A stretch of 32,000 bases of DNA from Promethearchaeota archaeon. Lineage in GTDB: Archaea; Asgardarchaeota; Hermodarchaeia; Hermodarchaeales; Hermodarchaeaceae. The DNA is taken from assembly GCA_048938295.1 (NCBI GenBank), contig JBHLMI010000016.1, forward strand, positions 1 to 32,000. The letters are read 5' to 3'. Shown piece by piece: positions 2,072 to 18,923 of this stretch (position 1 is the first letter of the stretch; each line of letters starts with the position of its first letter). The notes beneath the pieces were generated by a model. It saw only the letters and a list, made by a program, of their open reading frames with translations. It was not told the DNA's origin and made no database searches. The position numbers and the translations under genes were made by a program.

Positions 2072-3109
2072 TTATTTATTCAGACTATCTTTCAAAACAA
2101 CATCTATCAACAGTTCATCGTATCTCTTTTTTTCTTCTATCATTGGCATATGCCCTGAATCTTCAAAAATGATGAGCTTTTTACCTTTTTCAGCATCTAA
2201 GTTGTCATAGAATTTCTCAACAAGAACTGTGGGAGTAACCACATCGTATTTTCCTTCAAAGAAGTAGATGGGAACTCTAATAGATTGTATTTCTTTGATA
2301 AGATTGACATTTTTCAATTCCTCCCACATTGTTTTCATAGTAAAATGGAGTCCCTTGTTTCTGAGCGTTCTAATTCCTTCTGATAGTGAATATTCGGGTG
2401 AAGTTAAGAAATATAACACTAAAGGTATCATTTGCCTAATAGGCTTATCACGTACGAATCCTCCATAGTGGGTAATGTGCCCTTCCATTTTTAGGAACGT
2501 TTTAGGCGACTCATAAGGTGGTGGGCCTATTGCTTTTATTGCATTTTGCCTGCCTACCTCTCCGGATTTTTCAGCTTCTTCAACTAGAAAATTATATGAT
2601 ATTTTTTGCTGTTCATAGCTGTTTATTTCTTGCGCGACTCCAACATATGCATGTATTTTCTCCGGATATTTGTATGCAGTCTTAATTCCTATTATCGTTC
2701 CCCCTGAATGCGCAACAATGAAAACTTTTTGCGTGTGAAATCTATTTCGTAAATAATCAATTAACTCATTACAGTCCTCAACAAATCTATCTAAAGTCAT
2801 TGAATCAACTGGGATATCACGATTAAATGATTTGCCAGCCCCTCGTTGATCCCAATGAACTACTGTAAAATGTTTAATTAACTCAGCATCATATTTACGC
2901 GAACTTGACATCCCTAACAAAGGCGCACCAGGACCACCATGCAAAAATAACAAAACTGGATTATTTTGATCTGTACCTCTGATAAATATCCATTGTTTTA
3001 AATCACCAAGTGTAATCTCCTCCAATGAACTTATACCGTTAGCTGTCTTGATTCTAGTCGAATTTCTCAAATAATATTTATACAATAATAAACCGACATA
3101 GAGAAGCAA
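2072..3109 (-). CDS. Alpha/beta hydrolase (proline iminopeptidase-like), N-terminally anchored
   Basis: HGGPG oxyanion motif, WDQRGAGKS, nucleophile elbow AHSGG, acid GKYD and His in SGHMP. The frame stays open upstream to a TGA at 3170-3172 and adds a hydrophobic helix, so the true start is probably upstream of 3109. Confidence 0.9.
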   Translation of the reverse strand: MLLYVGLLLYKYYLRNSTRIKTANGISSLEEITLGDLKQWIFIRGTDQNNPVLLFLHGGPGAPLLGMSSSRKYDAELIKHFTVVHWDQRGAGKSFNRDIPVDSMTLDRFVEDCNELIDYLRNRFHTQKVFIVAHSGGTIIGIKTAYKYPEKIHAYVGVAQEINSYEQQKISYNFLVEEAEKSGEVGRQNAIKAIGPPPYESPKTFLKMEGHITHYGGFVRDKPIRQMIPLVLYFLTSPEYSLSEGIRTLRNKGLHFTMKTMWEELKNVNLIKEIQSIRVPIYFFEGKYDVVTPTVLVEKFYDNLDAEKGKKLIIFEDSGHMPMIEEKKRYDELLIDVVLKDSLNK

Positions 3110-3727: not shown

Positions 3728-4591
3728 TTAGAAAATTTCCTTGAAAAGTAAAAGAAGCGTTTTGACTCCTTTTTTATCATAATCCAGCTTTGGATGGTAA
3801 CAAGTAATACTCATCCCGATTAGTTGGTTTCTTTCCTTTATGAGAGTAAGCAATTCTTGGATTTCGTTGTATGAGAGACCACCCTCAACAGGATACTGTA
3901 TTGCTGGCATGATTTCTTTATCCAAGACATCAACATCAAAATGGAGCCAAAGTGGCAAATCCGGATTCTGGAATGAGCCAAGGCTTCGACGAAAGGTGGA
4001 TCCAATTCCATCTTTTAAGATTGATTTGCGATCAACTAACATGATATTCGACCTTTCAATAGAGTCGAGTTCACCTATTCCGTATGCAATGACATTTTCC
4101 TCAGGCAGTAACGGACCTCGTCCCGTCATGTAGACGATTTCTTTCGACAAATGCCCTGTCAAGGCGGCTAATTCCAAGTCAGCAGGCTCACCGGTTGTTG
4201 ATGTATCAAGAGTGTGAAAATCAGCGTGTCCGTCGAGAAAGAAGAGGTTCAAAGGTTGCTTCATTACATTAAACGCGTCAAAAATCCCCATTAGAATGGC
4301 ACAGTCTCCGCCCAGTACAATCGGGAAACTATCTTGAGCTAATTCATCACCTAGGATTCTGGATAAACTCAGAGATACCTCTCGCCACACATCAAAATTC
4401 AAAACATTTGTAATCGGATCTTTCTTATTTGAAAACATAGGAATGTGCAAATCGCCACGATCAGTTAGGTGGTGTCCTTTGTTCTGAAGTAAGGAAATCA
4501 CCCCTTCGTCTCTAAGGGATTGGGCTGGGTTTTCAACTTCAGGAGGCGTTCCATCTCCATTAAACGGAACTCCAATGATCGTAATTTTCAT
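3728..4591 (-). CDS. Arginase/ureohydrolase-family protein
   Basis: GGDC, DGHADF (DxHxD) and HFDVDVLD (DxD) metal-binding motifs; 287 aa. Confidence 0.9.
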   Translation of the reverse strand: MKITIIGVPFNGDGTPPEVENPAQSLRDEGVISLLQNKGHHLTDRGDLHIPMFSNKKDPITNVLNFDVWREVSLSLSRILGDELAQDSFPIVLGGDCAILMGIFDAFNVMKQPLNLFFLDGHADFHTLDTSTTGEPADLELAALTGHLSKEIVYMTGRGPLLPEENVIAYGIGELDSIERSNIMLVDRKSILKDGIGSTFRRSLGSFQNPDLPLWLHFDVDVLDKEIMPAIQYPVEGGLSYNEIQELLTLIKERNQLIGMSITCYHPKLDYDKKGVKTLLLLFKEIF

Positions 4592-4764
4592 AGACTACGT
4601 CTCTATCTCTAATCACCCAAGGAATTTACTGAAAAATGTATTCAACAAGAACGGATGCCATTGTCGTCTTTAGTCTCGGTGGTAGATGAGCTATCACGGC
4701 AAAGGTGACACATTTTATCTTGGGCGCTCTTTATTAGACAGTATTAATTTAGTCTTCGGCGTTC

Positions 4765-11925: not shown

Positions 11926-13041
11926 TTGCGCAGGGAAGCGAAATTGACCCGTGAATATCAGATCTGCACTCGCTGTGTAATGGATACCACAGATCCTGAA
12001 ATCGCCTTTGATGAAAAAGGCGTCTGCAACCATTGTACAAATTATCTCAAGCTTTTGAACCAAAATATCCTTCAGGAACCAGAAAGAACGACCACGCTAA
12101 AACGTCTTATCTCAAAGATTCATGAAGAAGGAAAGAACAAGGAGTATGATGCAATTCTTGGCGTTTCAGGCGGTGTGGACAGCACCTTTATGGCGTTCAA
12201 AGCAAAGGAATTGGGGCTAAGGCCTCTAGCCGTACACCTGGATAACGGATGGAACTCGAAATTAGCCGTTTCGAATATTGAACGGGTCTTAAAACGAATA
12301 GATGTGGACCTATATACCCACGTCATTGATTGGGAAGAATTCAAGGATTTACAACTAGCCTATTTCAAAGCCTCCGTAATTGATATCGAAGCTATCACAG
12401 ACCATGCTATCGTGGCTGTAATTTATGACATTGCTGTCAGACATAAGGTCAAATACATCATAAGCGGATACAATCTTGCTACGGAAGGCATTCTGCCACG
12501 AAGCTGGGTCTGGAATAAGACCGACGTTGTTAACCTGCGAGATATCCATTCCAAGTTTGGAACAAAGAAACTGAAAACCTTCCCCACCATGGGATTCTTG
12601 AAGTATGCCTATCGCCGGAAAATCAGGGGATACAAGAGCATACAACTCCTAAACTATCTTGATTATAATCGAGCTAAGGCAAAGCAGTTTTTAATGGACG
12701 ATTTTGGCTGGGAAGATTACGGGGGAAAGCATCATGAATCGCTCTTCACTAAGTTCTACCAAGCCTATGTTCTTCCCACGAAATTTAATGTCGATAAACG
12801 GAAAGCCCACCTCTCAACCTTGATACTGTCTGGTCAAATTACCCGTGAAGATGCCCTGAAAACGCTTGAAGAACCATTATATGATGAAATAGAGCTGAAA
12901 CGTGATAAAGAGTATGTGCTGAAGAAACTTGGGCTCACCGAAAGCGAATGGGAACACCTTATGACTTTGCCCATAAGACGACATGACGAATTCAAAACAG
13001 ATCTCAGGCTAAGAAAGTTAATCCAGTTCATAAGATCCTAA
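11926..13041 (+). CDS. N-acetyl sugar amidotransferase (WbuX/WbpG/AglX type)
   Basis: N-terminal CTRCVMDTTDPEI...CNHC, PP-loop GVSGGVDS, HLDNGWNS, WEDYGGKHHES. Confidence 0.9.
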   Translation: MRREAKLTREYQICTRCVMDTTDPEIAFDEKGVCNHCTNYLKLLNQNILQEPERTTTLKRLISKIHEEGKNKEYDAILGVSGGVDSTFMAFKAKELGLRPLAVHLDNGWNSKLAVSNIERVLKRIDVDLYTHVIDWEEFKDLQLAYFKASVIDIEAITDHAIVAVIYDIAVRHKVKYIISGYNLATEGILPRSWVWNKTDVVNLRDIHSKFGTKKLKTFPTMGFLKYAYRRKIRGYKSIQLLNYLDYNRAKAKQFLMDDFGWEDYGGKHHESLFTKFYQAYVLPTKFNVDKRKAHLSTLILSGQITREDALKTLEEPLYDEIELKRDKEYVLKKLGLTESEWEHLMTLPIRRHDEFKTDLRLRKLIQFIRS

Positions 13042-13200: not shown

Positions 13201-13238
13201 GTCCCGATTTGAAGGGTGTCAATGGTAGGTTAACGACA

Positions 13239-13850
13239 ATGTCTGCTATTCGACGATTTATGAGCTGGCTTGGTGGCGGACCCGATCTGAAGAAGCTCAT
13301 CTTTCGCCTCGATGTTTTCTGCCGGAAGCTCGATTTGCAACGAAAGATGCTTGAAAAAGAAGCGAGTAAAAGCCGTGAACGCGCGAAAAAATATCGCCTT
13401 TCTGGTAATATGGATGCTACGCGGATGTACTTGCAACACCATCTGCGATTCCAAAAATGGGCCCTGAGCGTAGATGCCTATCGTCTCCGTATTGAAGGTT
13501 TACAAACACAATTACGCCAAAGCGAAGCCATGGGTGAAGTGGCCAAAATCCTAGGACAGCTCAACTCTGCCCTTGGCGGACTGAAGAACCAAGTCAAGGT
13601 TCCTGAGGTTGCACAACTCGTCGATCAGATTGAAGGCAACCTCCGTCACTTCGAAATGACCCAAGAAGTCGCCGAAGCGGGAATGGAACGAATGGCCGTT
13701 TCCACCGAGGTCACTGATGGCGAAGTGAAAGACGCACTTCGGGAGCTCGATTCAGAAATCGAAGTTGAAACAGGTACTTCACTCCCCGAACCCGAAAAAC
13801 GCGTCTCTGAACTAGAAAAAGAAATTGAACGATTAAAGGAGGAGGGCTAG
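13239..13850 (+). CDS. ESCRT-III protein, Vps2/24/46 (CHMP1-3)-like
   Basis: Amphipathic N-terminus MSAIRRFMSWLGG, basic helical hairpin, acidic C-half, C-terminal helix ELEKEIERLK. ATG at 13239 chosen; the ORF track starts at TTG 13209. Confidence 0.8.
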   Translation: MSAIRRFMSWLGGGPDLKKLIFRLDVFCRKLDLQRKMLEKEASKSRERAKKYRLSGNMDATRMYLQHHLRFQKWALSVDAYRLRIEGLQTQLRQSEAMGEVAKILGQLNSALGGLKNQVKVPEVAQLVDQIEGNLRHFEMTQEVAEAGMERMAVSTEVTDGEVKDALRELDSEIEVETGTSLPEPEKRVSELEKEIERLKEEG

Positions 13851-13854
13851 AAAA

Positions 13855-14487
13855 ATGGTTAAATTCTGGGAAAAACTCTTTCCGAAAAAACCTGAACCTA
13901 AAGAAGACACGATTGCCCGGATTCATCGGGTTACAGACAAACTTGAAGTCCGTAGCCGTCAATATGAAACGAAGGCTAAGGACTCGAGGATTAAGGCTAT
14001 CCGTAATGTACGCCGCGGTGATCGAAAGGCTGCTAAATTACAGCTACGTCGACGCCAACGCTATCTGCGCAAAGCCCGTCTTATTGAGCAAGAAATCGAT
14101 TTGATGGAGCGTGGTGTTGAAGCCATCGATCAAGCTCGTGGAGAAACCGAAGTTATAAGCGCCCTCAAAGGTATCGGTTCTGAACTGGAGAACTTACGAG
14201 AGACCGCTTCACCAGAAGTTGCACGTGAGGTTATTCTTGAAACACAAGCCCTCATTGAGGAAGCTGAAGCCACTGAAGAAATCCTAGGTCTCGGCCTTGA
14301 GGACGAAGAAATGGACGCTGAAGTTGATGCTGAACTTGAGGACATCGAAACCATGATCGCCCTCGAAGAAGCGGGTCAGCTACCTTCTGTACCTGAAGGC
14401 GAAGAAGAGCTCCTCGAAACCTCAGAGGAGCGACGCGAGCGAACAAAGCGAGAACTTGAACGCCTGAAAAAGGAAGTCAAAGAATAG
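13855..14487 (+). CDS. ESCRT-III protein, Vps20/32/60 (Snf7/CHMP4)-like
   Basis: N-terminal FWEKLF amphipathic helix; A...RRGDRKAAKLQLRRRQRY matches the Snf7 helix 1-2 pattern; DAEVDAELEDIE helix; MIM2-like LPSVP; terminal helix RELERLK. Confidence 0.85.
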   Translation: MVKFWEKLFPKKPEPKEDTIARIHRVTDKLEVRSRQYETKAKDSRIKAIRNVRRGDRKAAKLQLRRRQRYLRKARLIEQEIDLMERGVEAIDQARGETEVISALKGIGSELENLRETASPEVAREVILETQALIEEAEATEEILGLGLEDEEMDAEVDAELEDIETMIALEEAGQLPSVPEGEEELLETSEERRERTKRELERLKKEVKE

Positions 14488-14501
14488 CTGATGTGCGCTT
14501 T

Positions 14502-16028
14502 CTAGCGCTTAGTTGCTCCTCGAGTGTCTTCAAGACCTCTATGTAATCGTATCTCTCGAATCTGGGCTTCCACCAGATACAATTCTTGAGTTAGGGAACG
14601 GTACTGTTTGAAGAATTTCTCATCAGATAGCTTCCCTTCCTCGAATTGCTTCTTGAGCAACTCCATAGTGGATTCGATACTAAACCGTTGCTGCTCTAGC
14701 TGAAAGACGGGATCTCGTTCCAACCCATCAGAACGTGGAGAAAACCGAGGATAATACCCATCGGGGTATGGATAGGGTCGAGCCCCCTCAGGTTGGCGAG
14801 ATTGGTCTCCGTCCTCAGGTGAGATTGCATAGTTGATGAGCTTGTCAAGTTCATCCCGTAGAGCTGTTACATCGACTTTCAGATTCAAAATACGTAGCGA
14901 ACCAGATGTTGTAACCAGACTATGTTCCGGGAAGCTGGTCGCCAAGTTAATGGCATCCGGGATGTCTTCTAGTACTTTCGAAGGCCCCCCAATTTTTAAC
15001 TCATCGTTTTCAGTGACTAGTCGAAGCCGTTTACGAATCCGTCCTTGAAGTTCTATGTCGTTAATTTCAGCAAGTGCCAATGTGTGAATAACTCGAGTTT
15101 CTTTGTTAAAGAAGCCTTTTCGTCCAAGAAAAAGCAGGCGTTTGTTAGTGATGAATAAGATTCCATTACCCATGCCTTCATTGGTGTCAGTCTTGTTAAG
15201 GTTCACTGGCTGAATAGCGGCAACAGGTCGTTCATTTTCGATAAGTTGCAGATGTTCGATGTGATTATCGAAGAGCTTGTGCCATTCAGCAATCTGGGTT
15301 AACCGGACCTCGATGTTAGCAAGCTTCACGTCTAGCTCATCGACAAGATCGCGACAATAGGCTTGGTAGTCTGCCACGTCTTCTTGGATCGCCTCGATTA
15401 GTCCCGCCAGCAAGGGAAAGTCTGTGATGGTCCAACGTTCTGGGTGCAAAAAGCGAATCTTGCTTGCCCGATGCCGTTCGACTACATTCCGTGCACGAAA
15501 GAGAATACGTTCCTGGACGCTAGCCAAGTCTGTTTTTATCAGGTCAAGGAGTTCCTTTTCAACATCAGGGTCATGCAGAAAACTCGCTGTTCGTAATTCT
15601 CGGATTCGCCAGCGTAAAATTCGCAACCGAGCAGCAAATCCTGATAGCAGTTCATGACCTGTTCTAAGCCGGTAATAAGTCGTCCCATAGCGACCAACCA
15701 GTTCTTGTCGCATGTTGTGAATTGGGACGATTCCTTCGGATCCACAATTGGGGCAAAGATAAACTCGGCGCGTCGCCAACTGGGCTGGTTCATCACATTG
15801 GGTGCAAACCCATTCACCCTCTTCCCGTTCTTCGATGGCGTCCGGTCCACAGCGAGCACAGGTGTAGAATTCGTTGTTGTCTTGACGTGAACAGGGGAGG
15901 CAAAAGACTTGTCCACATTCTTTGCAGTATCGTTCTGCCATATTGATATGGCAGGAGGGACAGAAACCACTGTTTTTTGGATCCACCGCTGGCTGGGACA
16001 TGAGCCTTCCGTTTCTTGGAAACCACAT
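14502..16028 (-). CDS. Multidomain protein: FYVE/B-box-like Zn finger + Zn ribbon + coiled coil + PH/GRAM-like domain + Vps23-like steadiness box
   Basis: Six CxxC pairs at the N-terminus (including CKECGQVFCLPCS), helical middle, GNGILFITNKRLLF PH-like strands, Pro/Tyr-rich linker, and C-terminal SIESTMELLKKQFEEGKLSDEKFFKQYRSLTQE. Alternative start ATG at 16001. Confidence 0.75.
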   Translation of the reverse strand: MWFPRNGRLMSQPAVDPKNSGFCPSCHINMAERYCKECGQVFCLPCSRQDNNEFYTCARCGPDAIEEREEGEWVCTQCDEPAQLATRRVYLCPNCGSEGIVPIHNMRQELVGRYGTTYYRLRTGHELLSGFAARLRILRWRIRELRTASFLHDPDVEKELLDLIKTDLASVQERILFRARNVVERHRASKIRFLHPERWTITDFPLLAGLIEAIQEDVADYQAYCRDLVDELDVKLANIEVRLTQIAEWHKLFDNHIEHLQLIENERPVAAIQPVNLNKTDTNEGMGNGILFITNKRLLFLGRKGFFNKETRVIHTLALAEINDIELQGRIRKRLRLVTENDELKIGGPSKVLEDIPDAINLATSFPEHSLVTTSGSLRILNLKVDVTALRDELDKLINYAISPEDGDQSRQPEGARPYPYPDGYYPRFSPRSDGLERDPVFQLEQQRFSIESTMELLKKQFEEGKLSDEKFFKQYRSLTQELYLVEAQIREIRLHRGLEDTRGATKR

Positions 16029-17774: not shown

Positions 17775-18923
17775 ATGAGCATTACCGCTTATCGCTTAAA
17801 TAGGAAACGGCATCGAGGATTAAACTCGGCAATTACTTTCAGTGACCCCTCTGCAGCATGTCTGTCTATTACAACAGACTGTCACGAATATCTAAAAAAG
17901 GGGTGGAATCCGCATGAAAAGCTGGGAAACAGCTTGTCGGACGAAAGTTCACATTTCAACTTCGAATCGCACCACACGACCGGGTTAATCCAACTCGGAT
18001 ACCTAATACAGAACCACCAAACCCACCCCTTTTCATTGACCCTTCAAGACCTCAACAACCTCTTTGTTGTCGGCCCCAGAGCTCAAGACATCTACTTCAA
18101 TCTACTCATACAACTTCATGACGATCACCGCATCCCAGTCATTGTCATTAAAGGAATGCCCTCGGAGGGTCTCGAAGAACAAGTCTGTGAAGGTCCGCTA
18201 TGGCATCTCGACTTAGAAAAGGATGGAATCACCTTCAACGCCTTGGACCTAGGCCATGGACAGCATACCTCGAAACAGGTTAGTATCCTCATTAGTCTCT
18301 TTGAAGAGTTTTATCCTCTCTCTCCAACAGCTCGGAATCTTCTTCATGTAATTATTTGGAAAACAATCCTGTCGGCTGCTCAACCGTCAATAGAGTATCT
18401 CCAAAATACCCTGCCATTTTATCATCATCATGGTGCTCCTTATCATGAAATACGACGACTAGTCGCTGCCCTCCCCCACGACGTTCTCAAATCTGATTAT
18501 GACAATGTCGCCTTATCTCGTATCACTCATCTTCCAACAATAATCTCGGTTACTGATACACCAACAAGCGTTTTTGCGATGAACCTACTGCTTATGAAGC
18601 TTATTGCACAAGAGGAAAATTCTCTTCCTCCCCTCTTCCTAGTTAATCTACCTGCGCTCTCTCAAAAGGTAGCCCAGTGGCTATTTGCCCGCTATAGGGC
18701 TGTAAAAAGCCCCTTAGTGTTTATTGAAACGAAGGTAACTCACTCAAATCCAATAGTCAATCAGGTTGGTAACTTCATACTCGCAAATGGTCTTGATGCA
18801 GTCCTTTCTCCCCTTGATCAAAGGCTAACAGAACGTGAACGGCATTTCCTCCAGCTGAACAGCGACCATATTGCCGTGCGGCTTCGTAGCGAGCCTGCGA
18901 CCCGATTTATTACCATCTTCTAA
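17775..18923 (+). CDS. Hypothetical protein, possibly a degenerate HerA/VirB4-like P-loop ATPase
   Basis: 382-aa open frame. TLQDLNNLFVVG...IPVIVIKG follows the HerA/DUF87 strand pattern but has no GKT/S. Start uncertain, only 21 bp from the divergent DGGGPS start. Confidence 0.55.
   Translation: MSITAYRLNRKRHRGLNSAITFSDPSAACLSITTDCHEYLKKGWNPHEKLGNSLSDESSHFNFESHHTTGLIQLGYLIQNHQTHPFSLTLQDLNNLFVVGPRAQDIYFNLLIQLHDDHRIPVIVIKGMPSEGLEEQVCEGPLWHLDLEKDGITFNALDLGHGQHTSKQVSILISLFEEFYPLSPTARNLLHVIIWKTILSAAQPSIEYLQNTLPFYHHHGAPYHEIRRLVAALPHDVLKSDYDNVALSRITHLPTIISVTDTPTSVFAMNLLLMKLIAQEENSLPPLFLVNLPALSQKVAQWLFARYRAVKSPLVFIETKVTHSNPIVNQVGNFILANGLDAVLSPLDQRLTERERHFLQLNSDHIAVRLRSEPATRFITIF

Follow-up and report, generated by a model that had tools for sequence, protein, structure and literature searches.

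The closest described relatives of the gene analyzed here belong to the architecture Znr_CC_PH_SB (also Znr_PH_CC_SB), which Makarova et al. 2024 (mBio 15:e00335-24, PMC10936438) assigned to asCOG cog.011556 and considered Asgard-specific, probably ancestral in the phylum, and a likely component of ESCRT-I (ESCRT, endosomal sorting complexes needed for transport), with a PH domain expected to be membrane-associated. In the published locus of Lokiarchaeum GC14_75, the cog.011556 member lies between L35Ae and MetE and is followed by a convergent Vps20-family gene (PMC10936438). Asgard archaea have been described as being without clear homologues of Vps37, Vps36, and ESCRT-0 (Hatano et al. 2022). 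We examined a window of 32,000 nucleotides (contig JBHLMI010000016.1, positions 1 to 32,000; assembly GCA_048938295.1) from a Promethearchaeota archaeon of the family Hermodarchaeaceae, in which a gene on the minus strand (14502..16028) lies tail to tail with a pair of ESCRT-III genes. We consider it fairly probable that this gene codes for a membrane-binding adaptor of the ESCRT-I type, which is the best-supported reading of the data and the best explanation of the locus as a whole.

Relation to the Znr_CC_PH_SB family

Judging from its sequence, the window protein is very probably a Hermodarchaeial member of Znr_CC_PH_SB (cog.011556). It has the modules of that architecture in the same order, namely three zinc sites, a helical or coiled-coil region, a PH domain, and, at the C terminus, a steadiness box, and it shares with it the restriction to Asgard archaea and a position close to an ESCRT-III gene of the Vps20 family, which is also seen in the Lokiarchaeum locus. 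Homology to a published member was found indirectly. A profile seeded by the window protein matched a 701-aa open frame (called as an open reading frame [ORF] of 671 aa) in a genome of GTDB family f20 (E value of 2.4e-56), and the gene order at that locus (PepD-C69, L35Ae, adaptor, MetE, convergent ESCRT-IIIB, 3-dehydroquinate synthase) is the six-gene order published for the cog.011556 locus of Lokiarchaeum GC14_75; the profile match and the shared order therefore tie the window protein to the published family. Nothing essential separates them: here the first two zinc sites are read as one cross-brace rather than as two ribbons, and the linker is about 35 aa long, versus about 250 aa in the Loki-type proteins. 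The fusion of zinc, PH, and steadiness-box modules, which the initial annotation of this stretch did not recognize as described, is already known and not new.

The whole ORF (14502..16028, minus strand) encodes 508 aa (P0001). The true start is probably M10 (ATG at 16001), because the relatives and the family profile begin there, which would give a coding sequence of 499 aa at 14502-16001. The database gene call (P0004, 479 aa) begins at M30 (window 15940-16028, minus strand) and therefore loses the first invariant CxxC pair. There are 37 database homologues; those named by source come from Thorarchaeota, Hermodarchaeota, or "Promethearchaeota" metagenome-assembled genomes (MAGs), the closest named relatives being Hermodarchaeota MAGs at 91% identity. 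In an AlphaFold2 model of the whole protein (alignment of 17 sequences; mean predicted local distance difference test [pLDDT] of 81.9), residues 33-102 make up a small zinc region rich in beta structure, and residues 103-260 fold into three long helices. A beta sandwich at 268-347 is capped by a helix at 350-382, the stretch at 407-436 is disordered, and helices at 440-463 and 469-496 form a hairpin. The motif strings singled out beforehand were all located where they had been placed, with GILFITNKRLLF at residues 289-300, RPYPYPDGYYPRFSP at 417-431, and a Vps23-like string at 450-484.

Modules of the predicted adaptor

The C-terminal helical hairpin (residues 440-496; 14541..14711, minus strand) is a Vps23-like steadiness box, as indicated by profile searches against the PDB, Pfam, and hhalign. 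A family profile built from 25 hairpins from across the phylum matched yeast Vps23 over the full hairpin (E value of 9.2e-9) and TSG101 (2.2e-4), and its four best PDB matches were all Vps23/TSG101 hairpins, followed by two chance-level matches and then by Vps37B (0.12). Vps23_core was the sole Pfam match for residues 400-508 (E value of 9.5e-5). With hhalign, the profile also aligned to proteins of the same genome, namely, to residues 218-271 of the Vps23-like protein (91%, E value of 1e-6) and to residues 16-67 of Vps28 (79%, 1.7e-5). A six-frame search of the genome, which is 91.6% complete, found exactly three such hairpins, those of the window protein, the Vps23-like protein, and Vps28. 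The Vps23-type steadiness box that had been aligned by eye is thus upheld, and a SHOCT domain or generic coiled coil was rejected for the C terminus after no such Pfam match was found at E values up to 10.

Residues 265-382 form a PH domain (14883..15236, minus strand) made of a beta sandwich (268-347) and a capping helix (350-382). It matched Pfam bPH_3 with 26.3 bits (cut-off of 23), the matches to GRAM and Vps36 GLUE being weaker, and Foldseek searches against the PDB retrieved the GLUE domain of yeast Vps36 (2cay; TM-score of 0.58 by target), a bacterial PH domain (3dcx; 0.65), the GRAM-PH domain of MTMR2, and the PH-like domain of Lam6. These results agree with the PH/GRAM/GLUE-type middle domain proposed at the outset, within which GLUE, bacterial PH, and GRAM cannot be separated by fold scores or by the family profile (E values of 0.023 for bacterial PH, 0.43 for Vps36, and 2.6 for GRAM). 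The PH domain is the sole basic domain of the protein (net charge of +4), which would fit membrane binding; its invariant basic residues are R297, R330, and R332.

Upstream of the PH domain, the model has three long helices (residues 103-147, 154-185, and 203-260; 15249..15722, minus strand) that correspond to the "CC" of the published name and to the helical stretch anticipated at about residues 105-260. No Pfam family and no PDB sequence relative (best E value of 0.19) was found for residues 100-262. The DH-PH (RhoGEF) proteins that head the Foldseek list were discarded as relatives; their query-length TM-scores are 0.16 to 0.22 with a root mean square deviation of about 20 Å, and the matches therefore reflect just the PH domain plus the adjoining helices.

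The PH domain is joined to the steadiness box by a disordered, Pro/Tyr-rich linker (residues 405-438; 14715..14816, minus strand; pLDDT under 50 at 407-436) that includes RPYPYPDGYYPRFSP. It measures 35 residues, versus about 250 in the Loki-type members (L062, L063, and L066; GTDB family f20; about 670 to 700 aa), in which it is rich in N, Q, Y, and P, and its length and sequence vary among lineages. The Pro/Tyr-rich segment pointed out at residues 417-431 is present but does not amount to a defined motif, since it is disordered and variable and a scan of the linker for the short linear motifs P[ST]xP, YPxL, and PPxY gave zero matches.

The N-terminal zinc module has six CxxC pairs, starting at residues 23, 35, 43, 57, 75, and 92, a number that no shuffled version of the protein reached in 20,000 trials. 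The pairs are conserved, as 11 of the 12 Cys are invariant across 27 phylum-wide homologues and the remaining one is nearly so. The first four pairs are spaced as in a cross-brace module of the B-box/RING-like type and would form one (residues 23-60; 15849..15962, minus strand; C-x2-C-x8-C-x2-C-x4-C-x2-C-x10-C-x2-C), which could bind two zinc ions, and the last two form a putative zinc ribbon as the third zinc site (residues 75-95; 15744..15806, minus strand; C-x2-C-x13-C-x2-C), with weak zinc-ribbon Pfam matches and four invariant Cys that are kept even in N-terminally truncated relatives. The reading as a B-box/RING-like finger followed by a ribbon is held loosely, because the match scores rest largely on Cys spacing. 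In Pfam, the cross-brace region reached 18.4 bits for zf-B_box (cut-off of 24.1) and was also below the cut-off for ANCHR-like_BBOX. With a separate model of residues 19-104 (pLDDT of 92.7), Foldseek returned nothing under an E value of 0.1, and a full VIA-align search gave weak but consistent matches to RING, B-box, and U-box structures (Z of 4.1 to 4.8, with about 50 residues aligned). The top weak fold and profile matches of these residues are RING E3s (Bre1, RNF4, c-Cbl, and TRIM21) and B-boxes; the sequence profile of the module matched RNF4 (E value of 1.6e-7), TRIM2, TRIM21, and the B-boxes of COP1 and CONSTANS, with its last two CxxC pairs matching zinc-ribbon proteins. The module could bind protein or ubiquitin.

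A FYVE finger, the reading given to these cysteines in the initial annotation, was rejected. The FYVE signatures WxxD, R(R/K)HHCR, and RVC are all absent from the window protein and from the family alignment, and the Pfam FYVE score (12.6 to 18.2 bits) is far under the cut-off of 27.8. There was no FYVE entry in the top 50 of Foldseek, the top 50 of VIA-align, or the top 60 of the PDB profile search, an absence from lists that is not proof. Other features of ESCRT-0 (Vps27/Hrs) are likewise lacking, with no VHS, FYVE, or UIM match in Pfam above the cut-off and no P[ST]xP motif.

Gene neighborhood, distribution, and variants

Two ESCRT-III genes lie next to the adaptor gene on the opposite strand: ESCRT-IIIA (13209..13850, plus strand), which is CHMP1/2- and Vps2/24/46-like (Pfam Snf7, 1.2e-16; PDB CHMP1B, 1.5e-7), and, downstream of it, the convergent neighbor ESCRT-IIIB (13855..14487, plus strand), which is Vps20/32/60-like (Pfam Snf7, 6.9e-17; PDB 9fn1, Vps20/32/60-like, 7e-13). 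The genome has no other Snf7-family genes. A spacer of 14 bp (14488..14501) separates the facing stop codons of ESCRT-IIIB and the adaptor gene; it has no terminator-like hairpin or promoter signal, although the scan was built for bacterial signals and says little here. The gene does directly abut the ESCRT-III pair, as first noted, but the two sides are convergent, stop facing stop, and therefore do not form one transcript or operon. The other neighbors in the window are unrelated housekeeping genes (amidohydrolase, HisH/HisF-like, metallophosphoesterase, UbiA prenyltransferase, and AspRS). Two further ORFs flank the ESCRT block, at 11926-13041 (plus strand, 371 aa) and 17775-18923 (plus strand, 382 aa), neither with a Pfam family at an E value of 1e-5; the former comes after the HisH/HisF-like genes and has an N-terminal CxxC...CxxC.

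The rest of the ESCRT set is on another contig of the genome, C53 (L016, G000:C53:1-12000), which codes for Vps4 (cut by the contig end), Vps25, Vps22, Vps28, a UEV-Vps23 protein that also bears Vps23_core, RING, E2, and E1. The three window genes are therefore not a self-contained system, contrary to the compact three-gene membrane-remodelling system that had been suggested. C53 also has an ORF of 97 aa between Vps22 and Vps28 (2311-2604, minus strand) and one of 178 aa (4135-4671, minus strand), neither with a Pfam family or similarity to the steadiness box; the 97-aa ORF was considered as a free steadiness box and dismissed on the latter ground.

Of 400 genomes sampled in the phylum, 295 had a match to the family profile, as did 71 of the 90 high-quality ones. 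We compared 50 loci, 30 from close relatives and 20 from 12 or more GTDB families, and found an ESCRT-III gene downstream, always convergent, in 48 of them, so that the linkage proposed from this single locus is conserved. One of the two exceptions is at a contig end and the other has no ESCRT-III gene inside 8 kb; the latter is a complete locus (L058, G127:C5:547882-565357) with an intact steadiness box (Vps23_core, E value of 1e-4). The stop-to-stop gap ranges from -4 to 140 bp in 44 loci. ESCRT-IIIB and ESCRT-IIIA are each the neighbor in 24 loci; it is therefore a position next to some ESCRT-III gene, and not next to one particular subunit, that is conserved, and this adjacency is kept across classes of the phylum where the remaining neighbors differ. 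ESCRT-IIIA is the neighbor in GTDB family f31 (L030-L046 and L048-L054), ESCRT-IIIB in the other families. In f31, the stop codons of the adaptor gene and the convergent ESCRT-IIIA gene are 0 to 4 bp apart, and therefore the 3' ends of both transcripts must overlap, with coupling by antisense transcription or interference as a possible consequence.

In one genus ("Promethearchaeota" MAGs G298 and G299), the syntenic orthologue is a variant in which the zinc, helical, and PH parts are kept and a Vps22-like EAP30 core replaces the steadiness box (Pfam EAP30, 1.8e-11; Vps36_ESCRT-II GLUE, 1.8e-4). The variant locus is L064:7986-9797 (plus strand) on G298:C138, and likewise L068 and L069 in G299; the variant genome has an ordinary separate Vps22 gene about 10 kb away on the same contig. 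This is the single such case among the 400 genomes sampled, and the fusion speaks for the module acting at the level of ESCRT-I/II.

Proposed role and competing explanations

For an ESCRT-I-type adaptor, we give about even chances to a mechanism of docking plus membrane binding. The adaptor would be held at the membrane by its PH domain, and its steadiness box would dock into the ESCRT-I headpiece together with Vps28 and UEV-Vps23, where it may take the slot that is filled by Vps37 in eukaryotes; the complex would then reach ESCRT-III via Vps22/Vps25. The Vps37 slot is proposed because the hairpins of the genome number exactly three, as in the headpiece of eukaryotes. A three-chain prediction with the hairpin, Vps28 (residues 10-100), and the Vps23-like protein (196-272) gave an interaction prediction score from aligned errors (ipSAE) of 0.42 (runs of 0.40, 0.42, and 0.50), versus 0.01 for the best control; the contacts agree by at least 97% among runs, the pLDDT of the partner is at least 84, and the score drops to 0.01 when Vps28 is replaced. 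The prediction is graded as weak support. In calibration, 58 of 80 solved complexes passed the ipSAE mark, as did 2 of 110 mismatched pairs; at 0.60 or under, the passes were just 7 of those 80 and both mismatches. These counts hold only roughly for this prediction, which was made on a custom alignment.

Like Vps23/TSG101, the window protein has a C-terminal steadiness-box hairpin with a helical region upstream of it, but it is without a UEV domain, has zinc fingers and a PH domain instead, and coexists with a separate UEV-Vps23. Vps37, found only in eukaryotes, is a third steadiness-box protein beside Vps23 and Vps28, as the window protein could be; however, the hairpin sequence of the latter is nearer to Vps23 (Vps37B, E value of 0.12), and the non-hairpin domains are entirely different. 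With Vps36 it shares the combination of zinc fingers and a PH fold similar to GLUE (2cay, TM-score of 0.58 by target), and the one-genus EAP30 variant has a Vps36-like plan, whereas the window protein has no EAP30 winged-helix core (no Pfam match) and its zinc fingers are N-terminal and not inserted in the PH domain.

Several points weigh against an ESCRT-I-type adaptor. Hatano et al. 2022 described the Odinarchaeal ESCRT-I as two Vps23 plus one Vps28, with no third protein, and no bench test of any family member was found in the literature surveyed. The complex score is weak and may reflect likeness to, or memory of, the solved eukaryotic headpieces (2F66, 2CAZ, and 6VME) and not binding. The Pfam Vps23_core match is below the cut-off (20 to 22.8 bits versus 26.8), and the PH domain, by fold and by sequence alike, is as close to bacterial PH or GRAM domains as it is to GLUE. 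Finally, the gene is convergent with ESCRT-III, hence not cotranscribed with it, and it lies beside ESCRT-III and outside the ESCRT-I/II cluster of C53, a position that a direct link to ESCRT-III would fit too.

Such a direct link is known from CdvA of the Crenarchaeota/TACK archaea, in which a PRC-barrel is combined with an E3B peptide that contacts CdvB at its winged helix. No PRC-barrel or E3B part was seen in the window protein. CdvA, too, is an archaeal adaptor encoded beside ESCRT-III, and a membrane-binding one, as the window protein would be. A protein working in a CdvA-like manner would sit on the membrane by its PH domain and recruit or nucleate the neighboring ESCRT-III, bypassing ESCRT-I/II; we regard this as a serious rival, though on balance an unlikely one. 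An ESCRT-III gene is the sole conserved neighbor (48 of 50 loci, 12 or more GTDB families), the adaptor gene does not share a contig with Vps28, Vps23, or Vps22, and the hairpin of CdvA has been reported to be similar to the steadiness box (Makarova et al., PMC10936438), all of which would suit direct recruitment. The equal split of the neighbor between IIIB and IIIA, in contrast, leaves no single conserved partner, and the hairpin is specifically Vps23-like and aligns with the Vps28 and Vps23 hairpins of the genome itself. It is less likely still that the protein is a part of the ubiquitin system, with the cross-brace finger acting as a RING/B-box E3 or as a ubiquitin binder like the NZF fingers of yeast Vps36 and linking ubiquitylated cargo to ESCRT. 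The best matches of residues 19-104 are indeed RING E3s and B-boxes, and E1, E2, and RING genes adjoin the ESCRT-I/II cluster of the genome, but these matches are weak (Z of at most 4.8 over about 50 residues, none in Foldseek under an E value of 0.1, and Pfam below cut-offs) and driven largely by Cys spacing, which, we assume, suits B-box 1 better than RING.

The remaining two explanations are far less credible. Were there no functional tie to ESCRT, inherited gene order would account for the adjacency, and the hairpin would be a SHOCT-like element or a generic coiled coil. Convergent genes are not cotranscribed and helical hairpins are common, yet the adjacency survives across classes despite differing other neighbors, the hairpin profile has Vps23/TSG101 as its best four PDB matches with no SHOCT at E values up to 10, and one genus swaps the hairpin for an ESCRT-II core; we therefore judge this explanation very improbable. 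The original reading, in which a phosphoinositide-binding FYVE finger of the ESCRT-0 type joins ESCRT-I/II modules in a self-sufficient three-gene system, is largely refuted and almost certainly wrong. Part of the Cys spacing is FYVE-like, and Pfam FYVE and FYVE_2 give weak matches (E values of 0.003 to 0.4), but the signatures are absent, the scores are under the cut-off, and a full ESCRT-I/II/Vps4 set is elsewhere in the genome.

If the ESCRT-I-type adaptor does dock as proposed, it might fill the Vps37 slot of Asgard ESCRT-I as its missing third subunit with a steadiness box, and also bring the PH module for membrane binding, which in eukaryotes resides in Vps36. The family would then be an ancestral archaeal form whose Vps37-slot and GLUE functions were divided later, and expression of the adaptor would be coupled to that of ESCRT-III by overlapping 3' ends, given the near-zero distance between the convergent stops (0 to 4 bp in one large family). 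We offer this scenario as a speculative one that is rather doubtful as it stands.

Among known organisms, Asgard archaea are the nearest relatives of eukaryotes, which lends interest to the way in which their ESCRT machinery finds membranes. The window protein is one more orthologue of a known family, and its short linker makes it a clean construct for biochemistry (499 aa, with well-predicted domains). The family occurs widely (295 of 400 genomes sampled), is strongly conserved, and has a gene order that ties it to ESCRT-III; it is the best candidate for the membrane-recognition part of the Asgard ESCRT machinery.

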